A stretch of DNA of 64,000 bases from Phycisphaerae bacterium (GTDB lineage Bacteria > Planctomycetota > Phycisphaerae > Sedimentisphaerales > UBA12454). The position numbers were made by a program, and so were the translations under genes. Positions 1,217 to 31,656 of the stretch are shown in pieces. The DNA lies in assembly GCA_026386845.1 (NCBI GenBank), contig JAPLMW010000064.1, forward strand, positions 33,427 through 97,426, read 5' to 3'. The notes under the pieces were generated by a model. The model did not search any database and had not been told where the DNA came from. It saw only the letters and a program-made list of their open reading frames with translations. The stretch's first letter is position 1. Every line of letters starts with the position of its first letter.

Positions 1217-3249
1217 CTATGGATAAGCAGATACGCTCTCAACAGTTCCGCTACACTCCAGGCCTGTGCGAATGCTCCGCGACTTTTGTGAGGTTCATCG
1301 CCGTCAAAAATCTCGCTCACAGAACCTACGCAGCCGTCATTTTTGAAATGTCTCAAAAGCGGCTTTAGCATCAGCAGGCTTTGTTTCCTGCTCGGCTTGC
1401 TGAAATCATTTACTTTCAGATACGCCTCGATAAAAGCTCCCATCAGCCACGGCCAGACCGTCCCCTGGTGATAAGCGATGTCTCTTTGCCGCACGTCTCC
1501 TTCATATCTGCCTTTATATCGGCTGTCTTTTGGCGACAGCGTTCGCAGGCCGAAAGGCGTTAAAAGTTCTTTTTCCACGCAGTCAACTACCGCCTTTTGC
1601 TGCTGGGCGTTTAACGGCGAAAACGGAAGTGAAACAGCGAATATCTGATTCGGCCTGATACTGGCGTCTTTGAAATCGCCTGTTACGCAGTCATAAAGAT
1701 ATTGTCCCTTTTCATACCAGAAACACGTGCGGAAACTGTTTGCTATGCGGTCGGCCATTTCACTGAATTGCCTGCCGTTAACCACGTCCTTGGCGCGGTA
1801 AAACTCGGCGCAATTGCATATCGCGTTGTACCACAGGGCGTTTACCTCAACCACTTTGCCGAATCTGGGCGTAACAGGAGTATCGTCGATTTTTGAATCC
1901 ATCCACGTAAGCTGCGTCTGTGCCGAGCCGCCGGTTATAAGGCCGTCGTTGTCCATCTTTATGCCGAATTTCGCGCCTTTGCAGTAGGAATCTATTATCC
2001 AGCGAACCACGGGCATCAGTCTTGATGAAAATGTCCTGACATCGCCGCTTGCCTTGTAGTATTTGAATGCCGCGTGGATAAACCACAGCGATGAATCTAT
2101 ACTGTTAAATTGCGCCCCGCTGTTTCCTTCGCCGAAACAGTTAGGTATCATACCCTCATCGGCGTGATACGAAAAGTTAAGCAGCACCGATGCCGCATCT
2201 TCATATCTGCCGCTGCACAGCAAGAGCCCTTCAAAAGCGATAAAAGCATCTCTGCCCCAGTCCATAAACCACGGAAATCCCGCGAGAATGGATTTGGTTT
2301 TTGCCCTCTCCGCATGCCTGTCGATAACAAATTCGTCGCTGCTGACCGCCAGGCTTTGTGTTATATGGTCTTTGCTCTTCAAGCCGCTTAAGAGTTGTTT
2401 TTGCCGAAGTTTAATATCATCGACAATCACATCAACATCGAGAGCCGTCATCTTCTGCGGCAAAGCCGGCGTGCCGAACCCTGCCCAGAAAACAATTCTT
2501 AAACGACCGTCTATTGTTCTTCTGAAAACCCCGGGCGAAAATAAATCTTCCTTATAATCGTAGCCTCGCTGCTTTTCCTGCCGGTAGGAAAAATTATTCC
2601 ACCATTGCTTCTCTTCGACAAAGGCCATTTCTTCGCTCGAAAGAAAAAGCTGCCCCTGCTGATACCTGCTCCTTACGGCAAGGAACTCGTCGAACCATTC
2701 GAGAAAAAATTCATCGCTCGCCCTTTTAAGGCTGTGATAATCTCTCATCGCGACAAGCGGTCTTATAGTAAATTCAAATTCTTCCTCGATACCCGTAAAA
2801 TCGTAGCAGATTGCGACAATATCCGATTCAGGCAGCAGATAGATGCTCTTTGTCAGATTAAAACTTTCCGTTGAATATTCAAAATGAACCCCGGCATCTT
2901 TGCTGAAACTTACCGGCAGCGGCTCAAGCAGCTCAGACGACGGCGGCTCGAATTCAAAATGGCTCAGATTGTAGCTGTGTTTAGGAGTATGAATCGTTTC
3001 AGCGCACGCGGATAAAGCGACTGTTCTCTGGGCAGGCGGGGTTAACGAACCGATAAGCAGCGCGTGATATCGGCGTGTATTGCAGCCGGCTGCAGTGCCG
3101 CATGAAAAACTGCCGCGCTTATTTGAAAGAAGCCATTCGGTCTCTACTAATTGTTCATATTTGCTCAAGCCGCCAGGCTTTTGTTTTACCTTGTCGACTA
3201 CTTCCGCTATTTGAAGCACTTTTGCCTTCCCTGCAAAATCAATTGTCAA
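1213..3249 (-). CDS. glycogen debranching enzyme family protein (amylo-alpha-1,6-glucosidase type)
   Basis: 678 aa. GFPWFMDWGRDAFIAFEGL and YHQGTVWPWLMGAFIEAY resemble the GDE_C (alpha/alpha)6 barrel. It is co-oriented with GH57 and glycogen-synthase-like genes. Confidence 0.75.
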   Translation of the reverse strand: MTIDFAGKAKVLQIAEVVDKVKQKPGGLSKYEQLVETEWLLSNKRGSFSCGTAAGCNTRRYHALLIGSLTPPAQRTVALSACAETIHTPKHSYNLSHFEFEPPSSELLEPLPVSFSKDAGVHFEYSTESFNLTKSIYLLPESDIVAICYDFTGIEEEFEFTIRPLVAMRDYHSLKRASDEFFLEWFDEFLAVRSRYQQGQLFLSSEEMAFVEEKQWWNNFSYRQEKQRGYDYKEDLFSPGVFRRTIDGRLRIVFWAGFGTPALPQKMTALDVDVIVDDIKLRQKQLLSGLKSKDHITQSLAVSSDEFVIDRHAERAKTKSILAGFPWFMDWGRDAFIAFEGLLLCSGRYEDAASVLLNFSYHADEGMIPNCFGEGNSGAQFNSIDSSLWFIHAAFKYYKASGDVRTFSSRLMPVVRWIIDSYCKGAKFGIKMDNDGLITGGSAQTQLTWMDSKIDDTPVTPRFGKVVEVNALWYNAICNCAEFYRAKDVVNGRQFSEMADRIANSFRTCFWYEKGQYLYDCVTGDFKDASIRPNQIFAVSLPFSPLNAQQQKAVVDCVEKELLTPFGLRTLSPKDSRYKGRYEGDVRQRDIAYHQGTVWPWLMGAFIEAYLKVNDFSKPSRKQSLLMLKPLLRHFKNDGCVGSVSEIFDGDEPHKSRGAFAQAWSVAELLRAYLLIHS

Positions 3250-13360: not shown

Positions 13361-13573
13361 ATGTTAGTTTTGAGCAGACAGAGAAATGAGTCGATAATGA
13401 TTGGCGACGACGTCGAAATAATAATCGTTGACGTGCGTGGGGACAAGGTCCGGCTTGGCATCACCGCCCCCAAGGCCATATCCGTCCATCGCAAGGAAGT
13501 TTATCTCGCAATTCAAGAGGAAAAGGCGGGACAGAAGCCGGTGAAGAGCCATCCGGAACCATCAGCAAGCTGA
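13361..13573 (+). CDS. csrA: carbon storage regulator CsrA
   Basis: 70 aa. [48 protein letters not shown] is the canonical CsrA sequence pattern. Confidence 0.95.
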
Positions 13574-28224: not shown

Positions 28225-28461
28225 TTATTTTTTATTATTAATATTCTCTTGTTTATCTTCCTTATTTGATTTTCGAGCATCCCATATTTTCCCCGCCGCA
28301 ACAACGAGAACAAACACCCCAAAAAATATAATATACAGAAGAGCCTCTTCTTCCAAAGGAATAGAATGAATACGCATAATCACAAAACAAACAATGAAAA
28401 ATATCACCGATACAATTATTAATGCTTTAAATTGATTAGTAGTCATATTATTTGTCGCCAA
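28225..28461 (-). CDS. small two-TM membrane protein
   Basis: 78 aa with two hydrophobic helices and a K/E-rich tail. Its start overlaps the stop of the upstream 571-aa gene by 14 nt, which suggests translational coupling. Confidence 0.55.
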   Translation of the reverse strand: MATNNMTTNQFKALIIVSVIFFIVCFVIMRIHSIPLEEEALLYIIFFGVFVLVVAAGKIWDARKSNKEDKQENINNKK

Positions 28462-30163
28462 TGATTATATTTTTCTGAAACCGTTTGGCACTTGCGAACT
28501 CAAATCTCGTTTCCGCTTCAACGACAACTTTGTCTTTATTGATATTTATTGTAATTTCTCTTTCCGCTTCTCGCCAGTGGATAATATTTGCCAGCGTAAT
28601 CGCCTTTTCAATCCCATCGCCGGTTTTGTAATTTGCAACCTCATCGGGCTGCGCCAACCTCTGATTATCATAAATCGACTCATTCGGCATACCTTGGAGC
28701 CACTGATAACTCTGCTCAATACTCTTTTCTTTTACCATCTCAATTGAAACCGGGCTTCTTTCAATCGCCGATTTTATAAACGGCCTCCAGTCGCAGCTTG
28801 CCATATCGCGATAAGCGTAAAACGCCAAATCTGCGATAGTATTTGTCTTTCGCAAATTCGACAGATAACCAATTATTTCCTCTCTGGACATTTCCGTTGA
28901 TATTTTTATCGGCTCGCTCGGTTTATAATTTTTCTCTCCCGCAGGGAGCTTGGGCTCAATATGCAGAAAATCATAAAGCTCAGCCATAAGTTTTTCAGGA
29001 TGTGGTACATAATCCGCAAAAAGCCCCGCCATCTCTTTTCTGCCCTGCTCGGTCCTGATATCCGGCCTTTTTTTCTTCATAAATTCCGCGAATTGTTCGC
29101 ACTGAATTCGATTCGCAAAAGGCTCACCCGAAAACTCGCCGTCGAAAACCTCATCGAGCATTTGTTTATGCGAACAATCGGCAACTCGCAGCGGGCTTAG
29201 ATGTTCGTAGTTAAAAAGGTCTTCTGCCTTAACGAACTGCGGATTGCCCCGGCAGTCCCTGCAGAACTGAAAATATTTTTGATAATCCGGATTTGCCCGC
29301 AGGAAATTTACCATTGTTGCCGTTGACAATTCCGCCTGCAGAAAGCCTTTAAGTTTCCCGCAAAAATCGTTATATATATTTTTGTCTATTGCAGCGTCTT
29401 TATAAAGGCAGTGGACTAGTCCGCTCGTGTGAGCGACGATGGTTATTTGTTCATTTCGCAGGGCCCTTTGGGCTTTGTTGGACAGTTCCGTTCCGTTGAA
29501 CCACATCGTTTTGGTAACTAATCTTCTGTTATTGGTAATAACTCCGTCGTTTATATCTATAAAGTTTTGCGAGTGCAGCGGCGTTAAAACCATATAGATA
29601 TCTTCAAGTGGTATTCCGCATACGATAAATGCCGCCGCCGCATATAGGGTTGAAAGGGAAACGCACTCCCCCGCTCCTGTTTTATAGCCTTCTTTTAGGC
29701 GGAAGGCGTTCATAGCTTCTGCAGTTTCTGTTTTCCAGTATGGTATAATATCGCCGTTGTATTTATCCAGGCCGAAATGTTTCCTGATATCGACATCATA
29801 GTAATATGTATCGCCTTCGTATCCGAACAGTGCGTTGCTTTTGGAGATTTCCCCTGCCGGCAGGTATTTCTCGAATCTTTTGATTTCGGCGTTCTTATTG
29901 GTCAGTCCCCAGGTTTGCAGGTCTAAGTTGAACTCGAACTGGTCCATAATGAATTGGCGTAGTCGCATCAGTTTTTTATAGGGGTCTTTTCCGTCTAATT
30001 TCTTGAAGCAGTCTTCCTGCCGCCACGACCACACGATTGGGCTCATTATATTTGCCAAAAGAAGTGAATACATCAGCTCTGGAAATACAAATATTTCCAT
30101 ATCGGAAAGCGTAAACGCCGATGAGTATTTTTCCAGGTCTATATCGCCCATCTTTATCTCCAT
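28448..30163 (-). CDS. hypothetical 571-aa protein with possible transglutaminase-like Cys-His-Asp core
   Basis: GAGECVSLSTLYAAAAFIVCGIPLEDIYMVLTPLHSQNFIDIND has the spacing of a transglutaminase-like C...H...D core. This is tentative. The second ATG (30151) has a better SD (GGAG, 6-nt spacer). Confidence 0.55.
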   Translation of the reverse strand: MEIKMGDIDLEKYSSAFTLSDMEIFVFPELMYSLLLANIMSPIVWSWRQEDCFKKLDGKDPYKKLMRLRQFIMDQFEFNLDLQTWGLTNKNAEIKRFEKYLPAGEISKSNALFGYEGDTYYYDVDIRKHFGLDKYNGDIIPYWKTETAEAMNAFRLKEGYKTGAGECVSLSTLYAAAAFIVCGIPLEDIYMVLTPLHSQNFIDINDGVITNNRRLVTKTMWFNGTELSNKAQRALRNEQITIVAHTSGLVHCLYKDAAIDKNIYNDFCGKLKGFLQAELSTATMVNFLRANPDYQKYFQFCRDCRGNPQFVKAEDLFNYEHLSPLRVADCSHKQMLDEVFDGEFSGEPFANRIQCEQFAEFMKKKRPDIRTEQGRKEMAGLFADYVPHPEKLMAELYDFLHIEPKLPAGEKNYKPSEPIKISTEMSREEIIGYLSNLRKTNTIADLAFYAYRDMASCDWRPFIKSAIERSPVSIEMVKEKSIEQSYQWLQGMPNESIYDNQRLAQPDEVANYKTGDGIEKAITLANIIHWREAEREITININKDKVVVEAETRFEFASAKRFQKNIIIGDK

Positions 30164-30176
30164 ATAAGATGGAGCA

Positions 30177-30204
30177 ATTTTAGACTATCTCATTCAAATT
30201 TCAA
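30177..30204 (-). promoter_or_regulatory. sigma70-like promoter for the 571-aa gene
   Basis: On the minus strand: TTGAAA (30199-30204), a 16-nt spacer, then TAAAAT (30177-30182). Confidence 0.3.
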
Positions 30205-30302: not shown

Positions 30303-30351
30303 AAAAAATTGGCCCCGACCTAAGACCGAACAGTGATCTTTGGCCGGGGCC
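30303..30351 (-). terminator. terminator-like hairpin with U-tract (minus strand) at the end of the tandem structured array
   Basis: GGCCCCGGCC...GGTCGGGGCC stem (one mismatch, ~20-nt loop) followed on the minus strand by AATTTTTTG. Confidence 0.4.
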
Positions 30352-30835
30352 TACATTGGGTGATGCTTCACGCATTAGTAAGCCAACTAAAACATGGTCT
30401 TAAAACCATGGTTTTCCTCAAAGGGTTGTAGCCGAAGTTTCACTGTCAGTCCACAACCCTAATCTCATGGGAGATACAGAAGATGAATTATTTTATTTTC
30501 TTCACGGCTAAGCCGTGCTTGAATTCGAGAGGGTTATAACCTTTTATCACTGTTCAGTCATAACCCTAACTCGTGGGAGGAGGAGAAAACTCTTTATGAG
30601 CTTATATAATTATCACGGTCCCAGCACCGTGCTTGCTCTCGAGCGGGCTGTAACCGACGTTTTCACTGTCCGATCACAAGCCCGACTCATTTGGGAGGAG
30701 GAGAAAACTTCCTGAGCCCTATATTATCACGGTCCAAGCCGTGCTTGCTCTTGAGCGGGCTGCAATCATTTATCACTGTCCGATCACAACCCACTTTGGA
30801 GGAGGAGAAGAAGTTATTGTTTCTTTTCTCGCCTC
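30305..30835 (-). ncRNA. candidate multi-module structured RNA (strand tentative)
   Basis: Compensatory changes occur in hairpin B between units. Two C-A mismatches on the plus strand become G-U pairs on the minus strand in unit 3. The U-tract terminator is on the minus strand only. Unit reading frames are not conserved, which argues against coding. Confidence 0.4.
30393..30813. repeat. four tandem ~110-114-bp structured units
   Basis: Units start at 30393, 30503, 30614 and 30728. Each has hairpin A (CACGG-loop-CCGTG), hairpin B (GGGTTAT/ATAACCC and variants) with the conserved loop TCACTGT, and then GGGAGGAGGAGAAAAC. Confidence 0.85.
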
Positions 30836-31199
30836 CCTCCCTAACCTCACAAATAATCCGCTTGAACATCCTGTCGGTAACATCACTACTCAATACCGCT
30901 GATGCTCCAATGCTCCGAGCCGCTACTTCCTGCTCTACATCACCCGAATCCACTATGGCAATAACCGGTATATAAGGTCTTGCCAACCGCAGATTCCGCA
31001 GGAATCGGCCATCCGGGGCATCCGGAAGGTTCCATTTACTGATGACACTGTCCACATTTTCATTTTTCAAAGAACGGCCGGCTTCGAAGCCGGTTTGTAT
31101 AACACAGACTCGAATGGGCAACGCCTTTAAGGCATTGCTTCTACCTCCGAGTCCCACTACCAAAATATTTGCTTTTACAAGGACGAGCATTCTATGCAC
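30687..31199 (-). CDS. single-domain degenerate (pseudo-)receiver protein
   Basis: It has a CheY-like fold pattern (NILVVG...DSVISKWNLPD...PVIAIVDSG...GASAVLSSD). The acidic pair, the phospho-acceptor Asp (K here), and the T and K positions are all replaced. The last ~45 codons run through the tandem repeat array, so the real stop may be artefactual. Confidence 0.55.
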   Translation of the reverse strand: MHRMLVLVKANILVVGLGGRSNALKALPIRVCVIQTGFEAGRSLKNENVDSVISKWNLPDAPDGRFLRNLRLARPYIPVIAIVDSGDVEQEVAARSIGASAVLSSDVTDRMFKRIICEVREGGEKRNNNFFSSSKVGCDRTVINDCSPLKSKHGLDRDNIGLRKFSPPPK

Positions 31200-31656
31200 C
31201 TAAACTGCCAAGAAGACATCTATCTTCTCGTCCTCGCTGTCCGCTACATTGCGGCAGCGATATATATAATTGCAACCTGTGTGCCAAGAGGGATTTTAAA
31301 AAGATAATTTTTTAAGTGGTTTAATGACAAGGGGTTAGGAAAGTGAAAAAATTATGTGTGCCGAAACAAAAAATTCCGCAGCCGACCATAATGGCCGGTG
31401 AAAAAATAATTTTTTTCGCGCAGAGTCTTTTACAAAAAACAATTAAAACAAAGCGACCATTTTGGTAAGCAGCGTCCAAAATGGACGGGCCCCCCTTATG
31501 TCCCTAAGGGATAAAAATTAAAGGGCTAAATAAAATATGAATAATTTTTAAATACATTTTTATTTTGGTGCGGGGTTGACAAAGAGATAAGTTTGGCAGA
31601 AAATAAAATGGCTAACCAATAAAATAATTTAAAAAGGATTAAGCCGGGAGAAATAT

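Follow-up and report, generated by a model that had tools for sequence, protein, structure and literature searches.

Cuckoo RNAs of the Alphaproteobacteria are modular hairpins that each carry the motif CCUCCUCCC, are often clustered, and have stems that vary in a compensatory manner while the motif stays fixed (PMC4615179). In Rhodobacter four siblings, CcsR1-4, are cut by RNase E from the 3' untranslated region (UTR) of the small gene ccaF1; the unit begins at an RpoHI/II promoter and closes with a Rho-independent terminator, and the CcsR precursor is bound by CcaF1 itself (PMC8034643). NfeR1 of Sinorhizobium meliloti uses three redundant anti-Shine-Dalgarno (aSD) motifs to block ribosome-binding sites, that of ntrB among them (PMC10746234). 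We were led to the cuckoo and NfeR1 papers by a literature search for CUCCUCC, a motif displayed by a tandem array in a 64-kb stretch of a Phycisphaerae bacterium (contig JAPLMW010000064.1; the whole stretch of 64,000 nucleotides is called the window here). The array is the body of a non-coding RNA of ~0.55 kb on the minus strand (~0.65-0.7 kb in relatives), and is the window's copy of an RNA element present in at least 31 further distinct loci of the Sedimentisphaerales/Phycisphaerae (Planctomycetota). To our knowledge almost no regulatory RNAs have been characterised in this phylum.

Coordinates are those of the window and the RNA is read 5' to 3' on the minus strand; its modules 1 to 4 correspond to units 3 to 0 of an initial annotation of this DNA, which had proposed a tandem array of four structured units. 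That array is real. Tandem Repeats Finder gives a repeat with a period of 112-114 nt at 30502-30792 (2.6 copies, 76-83% matches), a repeat search places the plus-strand core TCACTGT in register four times (30437, 30544, 30660 and 30770), all four units score 55-76 bits against a profile made from them, and relatives carry the same array. The units are 110, 111, 114 and 108 nt long. Hairpins A and B, the TCACTGT core and the purine tract, read on the plus strand as GGGAGGAGGAG in each unit and degenerate in unit 0, are present as the annotation described, with three overlapping GGA motifs per unit on that strand. No further copies of the array were found in the 64-kb window with covariance model (CM) R1.

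On the minus strand each module consists, in order, of a pyrimidine tract, hairpin B, a linker (CUCGAGAGCAAG), hairpin A and a closing AU-rich spacer (GAUAAUAUAG). The pyrimidine-only tract, CUCCUCCUCC(C), lies just 5' of hairpin B and includes the motif CCUCCUCCC, which is exact in modules 2 and 3 (UUUUCUCCUCCUCCC), matched at 8/9 positions in module 1 and degenerate in module 4. Hairpin B has a loop GGACAGUGA... with ACAGUGA and a stem of 11-15 bp, longer than first drawn, which reaches into the GATC/GACC previously taken for loop. Hairpin A, CACGG/CCGUG, covaries to CAUGG/CCAUG, CACAG/CUGUG and CACGC/GCGUG. Module 1 (30721-30832, minus strand like all that follow; 99.1 bits with CM R1) has its CU tract CUUCUUCUCCUCCUCC at 30798-30813, hairpin B at 30757-30792 and hairpin A at 30728-30743. 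Module 2 (30607-30723; 76 bits with nhmmer) has a tract that is invariant in relatives (UUUUCUCCUCCUCCC, 30693-30707), with hairpin B at 30644-30684 and hairpin A at 30614-30631. In module 3 (30496-30605; 102.7 bits with CM R1) the same elements lie at 30575-30589 (UUUUCUCCUCCUCCC), 30530-30567 and 30503-30517, and in module 4 (30386-30499; 54.6 bits with nhmmer) at 30469-30484 (the degenerate tract AUCUUCUGUAUCUCCC), 30422-30460 and 30393-30410. A purine tract, GGGAGGGAGG (30832-30841), near-invariant in relatives and the predicted partner of the module-1 CU tract, stands at the 5' end. The 3' domain (30303-30369) comprises GAAGCAUCACCCAAUGUAG (30369-30352), a terminator hairpin (30351-30311) with loop UCACUGUUCGG, and a U-tract (30308-30303). 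The predicted probability that the CU core is unpaired ranges from 0.36 to 0.75, with module 3 the most accessible at 0.75.

Relatives were collected by two routes: 80 loci (loci are denoted here by L numbers) were fetched through homologs of the 571-amino-acid (571-aa) protein encoded downstream of the array, and 28 metagenome stretches through a DNA pattern taken from the 3' hairpin. The array is present in 9 of the 80 protein-fetched loci, exactly the nine closest (at least 70% protein identity), in the same orientation and position upstream of the gene, nearly always with four units and with nhmmer E-values down to 1e-24; it is absent from 70 loci of more distant homologs searched with CM R1. 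The pattern yielded arrays in 24 of the 28 stretches, the others being two truncated or partial cases (L096, truncated, and L105, a short contig with the 3' domain only) and two chance matches (L092, L106). The close clade thus holds 29 distinct full loci and 103 distinct units, and exact protein-sequence lookup added L115 and L116. Viral contigs scanned with the module pattern gave 0 matches.

Orthologous modules share identities of 0.77-0.84 (0.64 for module 4, the least conserved), against 0.56-0.68 for paralogous modules, so the four-module layout must be older than the clade and the modules have not been homogenised. Across the clade the CU tracts of modules 1-3 are invariant over ~25 nt, and ~70 nt of the 3' domain are identical in all 10 protein-derived loci and in L116; loops of orthologous units differ in places by indels of 1-2 nt. 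The neighbouring proteins diverge more: between the window and L042 the receiver is 54% identical and the 571-aa protein 73%, while the 3' domain is 100% identical.

Some loci depart from the standard layout. Module 1 is tandemly duplicated, with a ~200-nt insert, in L084, L088 and L100 (first ~300 nt of the array), L095 has five modules, and unrelated sequence stands in place of module 4 in L116 and L091; module number is therefore not absolutely fixed. Two unrelated repeats were also seen, a ~39-nt tandem repeat AAGGGTGATGCGTTTAGTAAGGTAGTTTAGTAGAATAC beside the 3' domain in L105 (1-200) and AATCAGGYTTAAA-type repeats past the terminator in L005 (~2810-3060).

Covariation across the clade defines the fold. 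From the 103 distinct units RNAalifold predicts a 10-bp core of hairpin B together with hairpin A, with double compensatory changes in 11 of 13 pairs. A 16-pair structure has 94.0% of its cells paired, and both sides change in 12 of its pairs (107 cells); 0 of 500 shuffles reached any of the observed pairing or covariation measures, and the covariation score of 0.335 compares with 0.006-0.094 in a control in which the partners were slid. The compensatory stem changes that the initial annotation saw between units hold across the clade. Helix P2, an extension of hairpin B (CGAG/CUCG), has compensatory variants in module 3 (CGAU/AUCG and CGAA/UUCG, by eye), and was mis-registered in the MAFFT alignment and excluded from the counted 16-pair structure. 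Two further helices are not supported, as their sequences are invariant or inconsistent among module types: an outer helix P1 (GCUC/GAGC) and an alternative GCUCA/UGAGC hairpin around the tract, which lacks covariation support and is possible, weakly, in module 2 only.

The same alignment settles the strand. Of the pairs read on the minus strand, 1281 are Watson-Crick, 261 G-U and 8 A-C; on the plus strand the pairing falls to 78.6%, since the 261 G-U become A-C. The minimum free energy (MFE) is -206.9 kcal/mol for the minus strand (z -7.6) and -177.9 kcal/mol for the plus strand (z -4.7). Because of this G-U/A-C asymmetry and the better minus-strand fold, the functional strand is the minus strand, as had been argued from mismatches within a single unit, and both structure and strand are firmly established. 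An array of protein sites in double-stranded DNA (iterons) was rejected, as it leaves the asymmetry unexplained.

Non-coding status follows from several observations. A protein-coding tandem repeat, already discounted by the initial annotation because unit lengths differ by non-multiples of 3 and the repeat is read in different frames, is rejected on the grounds that neither unit lengths nor ortholog indels are multiples of 3, that the stem substitutions are compensatory, and that the receiver reading frame of relatives stops upstream; small open reading frames (ORFs) on either strand are rejected because their frame is not conserved. Nor is this a CRISPR array, as the annotation also held: the 108-114-nt units abut without unique spacers, are 56-68% alike and are orthologously conserved between genomes.

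The annotation's second hypothesis, a plus-strand transcript whose GGGAGGAGGAG tracts sponge CsrA (gene placed at 13361 by the annotation), draws on the three overlapping GGA motifs of each plus-strand unit. Conserved structure, however, is found on the minus strand only (94% against 79% paired), as are the conserved promoter and terminator described below; transcription of the plus strand would continue in antisense through the receiver gene, and there is no match to CsrB or any other Rfam family. The conserved loop motif on the minus strand is ACAGUGA rather than GGA, which is not conserved in the minus-strand loops either (module 3 often has GAA, module 4 CGA). Membership of the CsrB/RsmZ sponge class is rejected, since the GGA tracts lie on the strand that lacks conserved structure, and CsrA sponging is extremely improbable.

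Both genes flanking the array lie, like it, on the minus strand. Immediately upstream is a pseudo-receiver ORF (30687-31199, 170 aa, ATG at 31190) that scores 27.9 bits with Pfam Response_reg, below the cut-off; its best matches, all weak, are the receiver domains of NtrC, GlrR and LuxO. The family is narrow (114 clusters of 131-150 aa), and Pfam/NCBIfam-type searches recognised no RNA-binding domain in it. Homology to the receivers of relatives stops near 30844, after which the frame runs into the RNA as far as 30687. In every relative the receiver ORF ends in a conserved tail, ...LGLGDTEEIQKLCAVADD*, ~100 nt before unit 1. Three-way alignment with L115, whose 571-aa protein is 92% identical, and L001 places the junction of a 131-nt deletion, found in the window only, at 30843/30844. 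Lost with it are the last ~20 codons of the receiver (the LGLGDT..CAVADD tail), the stop codon, and a 5' hairpin of the RNA (GGGCCAAAGACCGAACAGU..GGACCC), which in relatives has the loop GACCGAACAGU and starts 2-5 nt past the receiver stop. The overlap between array and receiver gene reported by the initial annotation is therefore a product of this deletion, which may reflect either genuine strain variation or an error in assembly.

A sigma-54 (-24/-12) promoter, TGGCACACAGGTTGCA, lies on the minus strand at 31271-31286, ~80 nt upstream of the receiver ATG, and is the sole such site in the window. TGGCAC-N5-TTGCW is kept, with variable spacer, in 19 distinct relatives 70-90 nt ahead of the receiver ATG, and more distant relatives have GG-N10-GC variants. 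Between 100 and 200 bp upstream of the promoter are three palindromic enhancer-like sites, (G)NCCAWWWTGGNC (CCAWWWTGGNC; 31384-31396, 31455-31465 and 31474-31486); the pattern occurs 5 times in the 64-kb window, each time within these sites, against 1.5 occurrences expected by chance. Comparable palindromes, GACCATAATGGTC, stand upstream of the promoter in distant relatives, and we presume them to be sites for an enhancer-binding protein. At the other end, the minus-strand hairpin and U-tract at 30351-30303, noted by the initial annotation, are terminator-like by scan and identical in all relatives. A scan of the minus strand found no sigma-70-like promoter inside the array or its AU-rich spacers. 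The conserved promoter and terminator, the lack of room for a promoter after the receiver stop and the lack of an internal sigma-70 site argue for one transcript comprising receiver ORF, RNA and terminator, and we infer from these sequence features that the array is co-transcribed with the receiver from the sigma-54 promoter. The window contains no second sigma-54 promoter and no PEP-CTERM gene; it also has no GAFTGA activator gene, so the sigma-54 activator must be encoded elsewhere.

In the receiver 5'UTR (~31200-31265, minus strand) a conserved purine block, GAGGnCGAGAAGA, is followed by a local complement, GUCUUCUU, with which it forms a hairpin, and GAGGACGAG is a complement of the start-codon region AUGCUCGUCCUU. 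Such folding may control translation of the receiver mRNA.

Downstream of the array, the 571-aa protein gene (28448-30163, minus strand) has a sigma-70-like promoter of its own, TTGAAA-N16-TAAAAT (30177-30204, minus strand; 10/12 consensus positions), and relatives have kept a TTGCAA...TAAAAT block past the terminator; this promoter marks the RNA as a separate unit. The protein has more than 6000 homologs in Phycisphaerae/Sedimentisphaerales and no Pfam, NCBIfam or PADLOC match. Over 16 sequences its mean column identity is 74%, and C167 (in GAGECVSLS), H197 and D203 are invariant; our impression, and only that, is of a Cys-His-Asp triad of the transglutaminase or protease-like kind. Since the same-strand order of repeats, terminator and gene recalls toxIN, the array might be a repeat RNA of type III toxin-antitoxin or defence kind that controls this gene. 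Such a role is very remote, given that the gene has its conserved promoter past the terminator, that 70 loci of this large family have no array, that distant arrays sit beside a receiver gene at other loci, that PADLOC and Pfam give no match, and that the units measure 110 nt and not ~36 nt. We rejected ToxI-like repeats on the same PADLOC result and on the lack of obligate coupling, as the 571-aa gene without the array and the array without that gene both occur.

The array travels with the receiver instead. Receivers 50-57% identical to that of the window occur at other genomic sites (L109/110, L111/112, L113 and L117), each directly followed by diverged modules (CM E-values 3e-6 to 0.1; the sequences were also read by eye). 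Together with the 70 array-less loci of 571-aa homologs, this links the array to the receiver and not to the 571-aa gene. The distant modules retain a pyrimidine tract, the base of hairpin B (GCUGGGYUUG/CAARCCCAGC), hairpin A and the AU-rich spacer, and lack the ACAGUGA loop and the invariant 3' domain. Their tracts are still pyrimidine-only and have drifted in sequence to CUCCCCCC, CUCUCCUCUUCUUC or (CU)n. In L111 (4425-4450) one tract has expanded to a (CT)n microsatellite, CTCTCTCTCTCTCTCTCTCTCTTCTTCG, which suggests that selection there keeps composition or length and not exact sequence. The L117 array closes with a terminator formed from the last hairpin A.

Directly upstream of two of the distant receivers are genes for sigma-54 activators of 352-366 aa that have no receiver domain (L109, 1873-2931; L117, 2064-3164) and align to PrsR/NtrC-type regulators from the AAA+ domain onward only. 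From sequence this looks like a split activator, in which the detached, non-phosphorylatable receiver is itself under sigma-54 control, an arrangement that would allow a feedback loop. After the array, a gene with a strong Shine-Dalgarno (SD) sequence encodes a secreted PEP-CTERM protein of ~215 aa (TIGR02595 above cut-off) in L109 (4705-5352), L111 (3564-4217) and L113 (4522-5181), and in L111 modules are found on both sides of it.

These neighbourhoods bear on the idea that the array is a cis element of the receiver operon, either a long 3'UTR that governs how stable the receiver mRNA is or how well it is translated, for instance through pairing of CU tracts with GAGGnCGAGAAGA in the 5'UTR, or a leader or intergenic control element of the PEP-CTERM gene in relatives. 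The array always lies directly downstream of the receiver stop, the conserved 5'UTR block is 12/13 complementary to the module-1 tract, and in L109, L111 and L113 modules precede the strong-SD PEP-CTERM gene, and in L111 they follow it as well. We nevertheless regard a cis role as decidedly improbable. In the window clade and in L117 the unit closes at a terminator just after the array and includes no further gene, chance alone would make low-complexity purine and pyrimidine stretches complementary, and pairing of CU tracts with the SD of the PEP-CTERM genes is inconsistent by eye (8 bp in L109, weak in L111 and L113). Four conserved and individually distinct modules also exceed the needs of a stability element.

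Long-range contacts are predicted within the RNA. Pairing of GGGAGGGAGG with the module-1 CU tract appears in both MFE and alifold predictions, and as neither side varies it is beyond the reach of covariation. The module loops are complementary to the terminator loop UCACUGUUCGG, a match that on the minus strand depends on G-U pairs; duplexes of 13-16 bp between the terminator loop and either these loops or that of the 5' hairpin have energies of -18 to -30 kcal/mol, compared with about -9 for shuffled sequence. Every module-loop variant retains this pairing through G-U, and the terminator loop and the 5' hairpin loop of relatives are perfect complements over 13-14 nt, both invariant. Such features could belong to an unprocessed large RNA of architectural kind, comparable to OLE, ROOL or GOLLD, in which five ACAGUGA-type loops kiss the one terminator loop and GGGAGGGAGG forms a helix with the CU tract, with no anti-SD role. 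The fixed number and order of modules, the greater likeness of orthologous than of paralogous modules and the fold z-score of -7.6 would also suit it. Against this, distant lineages keep the modules but not the ACAGUGA loop or the 3' domain, and the window has lost the 5' hairpin without visible decay elsewhere. Complementary loops could be a relic of inverted duplication, and pairing between two invariant sides is beyond covariation support. Overall, we consider an unprocessed architectural RNA of this sort distinctly unlikely.

The reading we favour, tentatively and with somewhat less than even confidence, is that the RNA acts as a multivalent anti-SD-type regulator, possibly processed to ~110-nt small RNAs (sRNAs). 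It is preferred because the logic of the locus matches that of CcsR: both have a small gene under an alternative sigma factor, followed by four siblings that share one motif, AU-rich junctions between these, and a terminator. Enhancer-dependent transcription by sigma-54 would produce the RNA as the 3' part of the pseudo-receiver transcript, ending at 30351-30303. Each of the four anciently duplicated sibling modules would then show its pyrimidine tract as a redundant seed, and the tracts would base-pair in trans with purine-rich ribosome-binding regions of mRNAs and block their translation. Before that, cleavage within the AU-rich spacers may divide the precursor into ~110-nt sRNAs that end in hairpin A. 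Availability of the seeds could be tuned by internal masking, with the 5' GGGAGGGAGG acting on module 1 and GGGCUCAGGA on module 2, and pairing of the ACAGUGA loops with the complementary terminator loop may add to this. The proposed processing, trans base-pairing and target identity are all drawn by analogy with the alphaproteobacterial systems. As for the minus-strand CUCCUCC seeds put forward in the initial annotation, the tracts are indeed displayed, and an anti-SD role appears the best fit.

Several observations weigh against anti-SD regulation. With crude start calls, a 4-mer SD core was found at 13 of 70 long ORFs, against a background of 9%; this weak enrichment suggests low SD usage in the organism, which would make generic SD occlusion less obviously useful here. 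Perfect matches to GGAGGAGGAG-like sites in the window are confined to the array itself, and two sites with 1 mismatch lie away from gene starts. RNAduplex over 347 candidate start regions of the window gave a best non-self energy of -20.2 kcal/mol, at a MetH-like gene, which is unconvincing; the suggested pairing of CU tracts with SD regions thus yielded no convincing target within the window. Because the tracts drift in distant lineages, where they are often paired to an adjacent GAGGAG, "pyrimidine tract" describes them better than a fixed anti-SD. Seeds also leave the invariance of the 3' domain and of ACAGUGA unexplained, and this invariance may point to a higher-order fold or to a protein that binds the RNA; the fixed order and individuality of the modules would fit one large RNA, too.

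A protein partner is the essence of another account, in which the RNA is a multivalent sponge or scaffold and each module binds one protein molecule through its pyrimidine tract, its ACAGUGA loop or both. The partner could be a global RNA-binding protein, or the co-encoded pseudo-receiver in a role like that of CcaF1, and the RNA would titrate or assemble it under conditions that induce sigma-54, in the way that CrcZ acts on Hfq/Crc and RsmZ on RsmA. Each module repeats single-stranded motifs and loops that are strictly conserved, pyrimidine composition is held while tract sequence drifts in distant lineages, the RNA is far more conserved than the receiver and the 571-aa protein, and the array always accompanies the narrow 114-member receiver family. 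There is precedent in that CcaF1 binds its own CcsR precursor (PMC8034643). On the other hand, our analysis identified no bacterial protein that prefers CUCCUCC, the receiver has no recognisable RNA-binding domain, and in the window strain the RNA is intact although the receiver has lost its C-terminus. We regard a sponge or scaffold as possible, if on the doubtful side. A combined form, in which the element is no bundle of small anti-SD RNAs but a single ~0.65 kb architectural RNA, its four modules, 5' hairpin and terminator joined within or between copies by kissing of five ACAGUGA-type loops with the one complementary loop and further by a purine:pyrimidine helix, and is a multivalent platform for a pyrimidine-tract-binding factor in a sigma-54/split-activator circuit, appears unlikely.

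Whatever its mode of action, this is a long modular RNA with strong covariation that outconserves the neighbouring proteins and is tied to a sigma-54 promoter and a stand-alone pseudo-receiver in a little-explored phylum, and the 103-unit alignment and model are sufficient to seed an Rfam family. Were the cuckoo-like reading wrong, the invariant 3' domain and complementary loops would point to a new protein partner or a large-RNA architecture; an architectural platform, if true, would be a new class of large bacterial non-coding RNA. If anti-SD regulation is the correct reading, the locus offers a test case for it in a genome that seems poor in SD sequences.

Judged by Rfam 15 and the searchable literature, this is a genuine RNA family without an earlier description. 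Rfam gave no match at the gathering threshold over the window, none relevant at E<=10 on the array and none at E<=1 in four relatives, and we found no description of such an RNA in Planctomycetes/Phycisphaerae or near PEP-CTERM genes. Rfam holds models of alpha-r14 type. The novelty claimed in the initial annotation therefore holds for the family but not for its design, since tandem siblings with CCUCCUCCC are already known from cuckoo, CcsR and NfeR1. Like CcsR1-4 and the cuckoo RNAs (RSs0680 family of Rhodobacter sphaeroides), the present RNA is a tandem cluster of four homologous CCUCCUCCC modules in the 3'UTR of a small protein gene, with an alternative sigma factor, a terminator and AU/U-rich sibling junctions. 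Those RNAs belong to Alphaproteobacteria, RpoHI/II and a DUF1127 gene, whereas here the setting is Planctomycetota, sigma-54 and a pseudo-receiver; compared with CIN1-type loci, which have tandem siblings in a UTR of a small DUF1127 gene, a stress-sigma promoter and a terminator, the architecture agrees (small gene, four siblings, terminator, alternative sigma factor) but the gene is Response_reg-like and not DUF1127. Their motif sits in the loop of each of two small hairpins (2-4 adjacent simple hairpins across cuckoo, CcsR and alpha-r14 RNAs), whereas ours lies 5' of a long hairpin, unpaired or partly masked, in modules of ~110 nt, and the consensus folds place ACAGUGA or short variable sequences in the loops where cuckoo, CcsR and alpha-r14 RNAs have the motif. 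The ACAGUGA loop and the complementary terminator loop are extra features here. Membership of the cuckoo/CcsR family was rejected on the position of the motif outside hairpin loops, the absence of a CM match, the non-DUF1127 partner and the different phylum.

With NfeR1/alpha-r14 the array shares several identical, ultraconserved CCUCCUCCC anti-SD motifs left unpaired in one RNA; those of NfeR1 work redundantly on ribosome-binding sites, and NfeR1 belongs to an NtrBC (sigma-54 activator) circuit (PMC10746234). It differs in being a ~0.6-kb four-module 3'UTR array, where NfeR1 is a single 123-nt sRNA of three hairpins with its own sigma-70-type promoter, and the two have no detectable homology of sequence or structure. 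Enhancer-binding proteins and sigma-54 also drive Qrr1-4, GlmY/GlmZ and CrcZ, which have sibling or repeated-motif designs; however, these work through the Qrr seed, GlmY mimicry and A-rich CrcZ motifs, and none is a 3'UTR array of CU tracts. In Firmicutes, RsaE/RoxS and RNAIII likewise target G-rich SD regions with several unpaired C/U-rich motifs, but theirs are short UCCC/CCCC motifs in small single sRNAs of unrelated sequence, structure and locus. The simplest reading of the likeness to cuckoo and CcsR is convergence. If the cuckoo-like reading holds, two distant phyla would each have evolved, independently, tandem CCUCCUCCC siblings in the 3'UTR of a small gene that an alternative sigma factor controls, which would argue that the design solves some regulatory problem in a general way.

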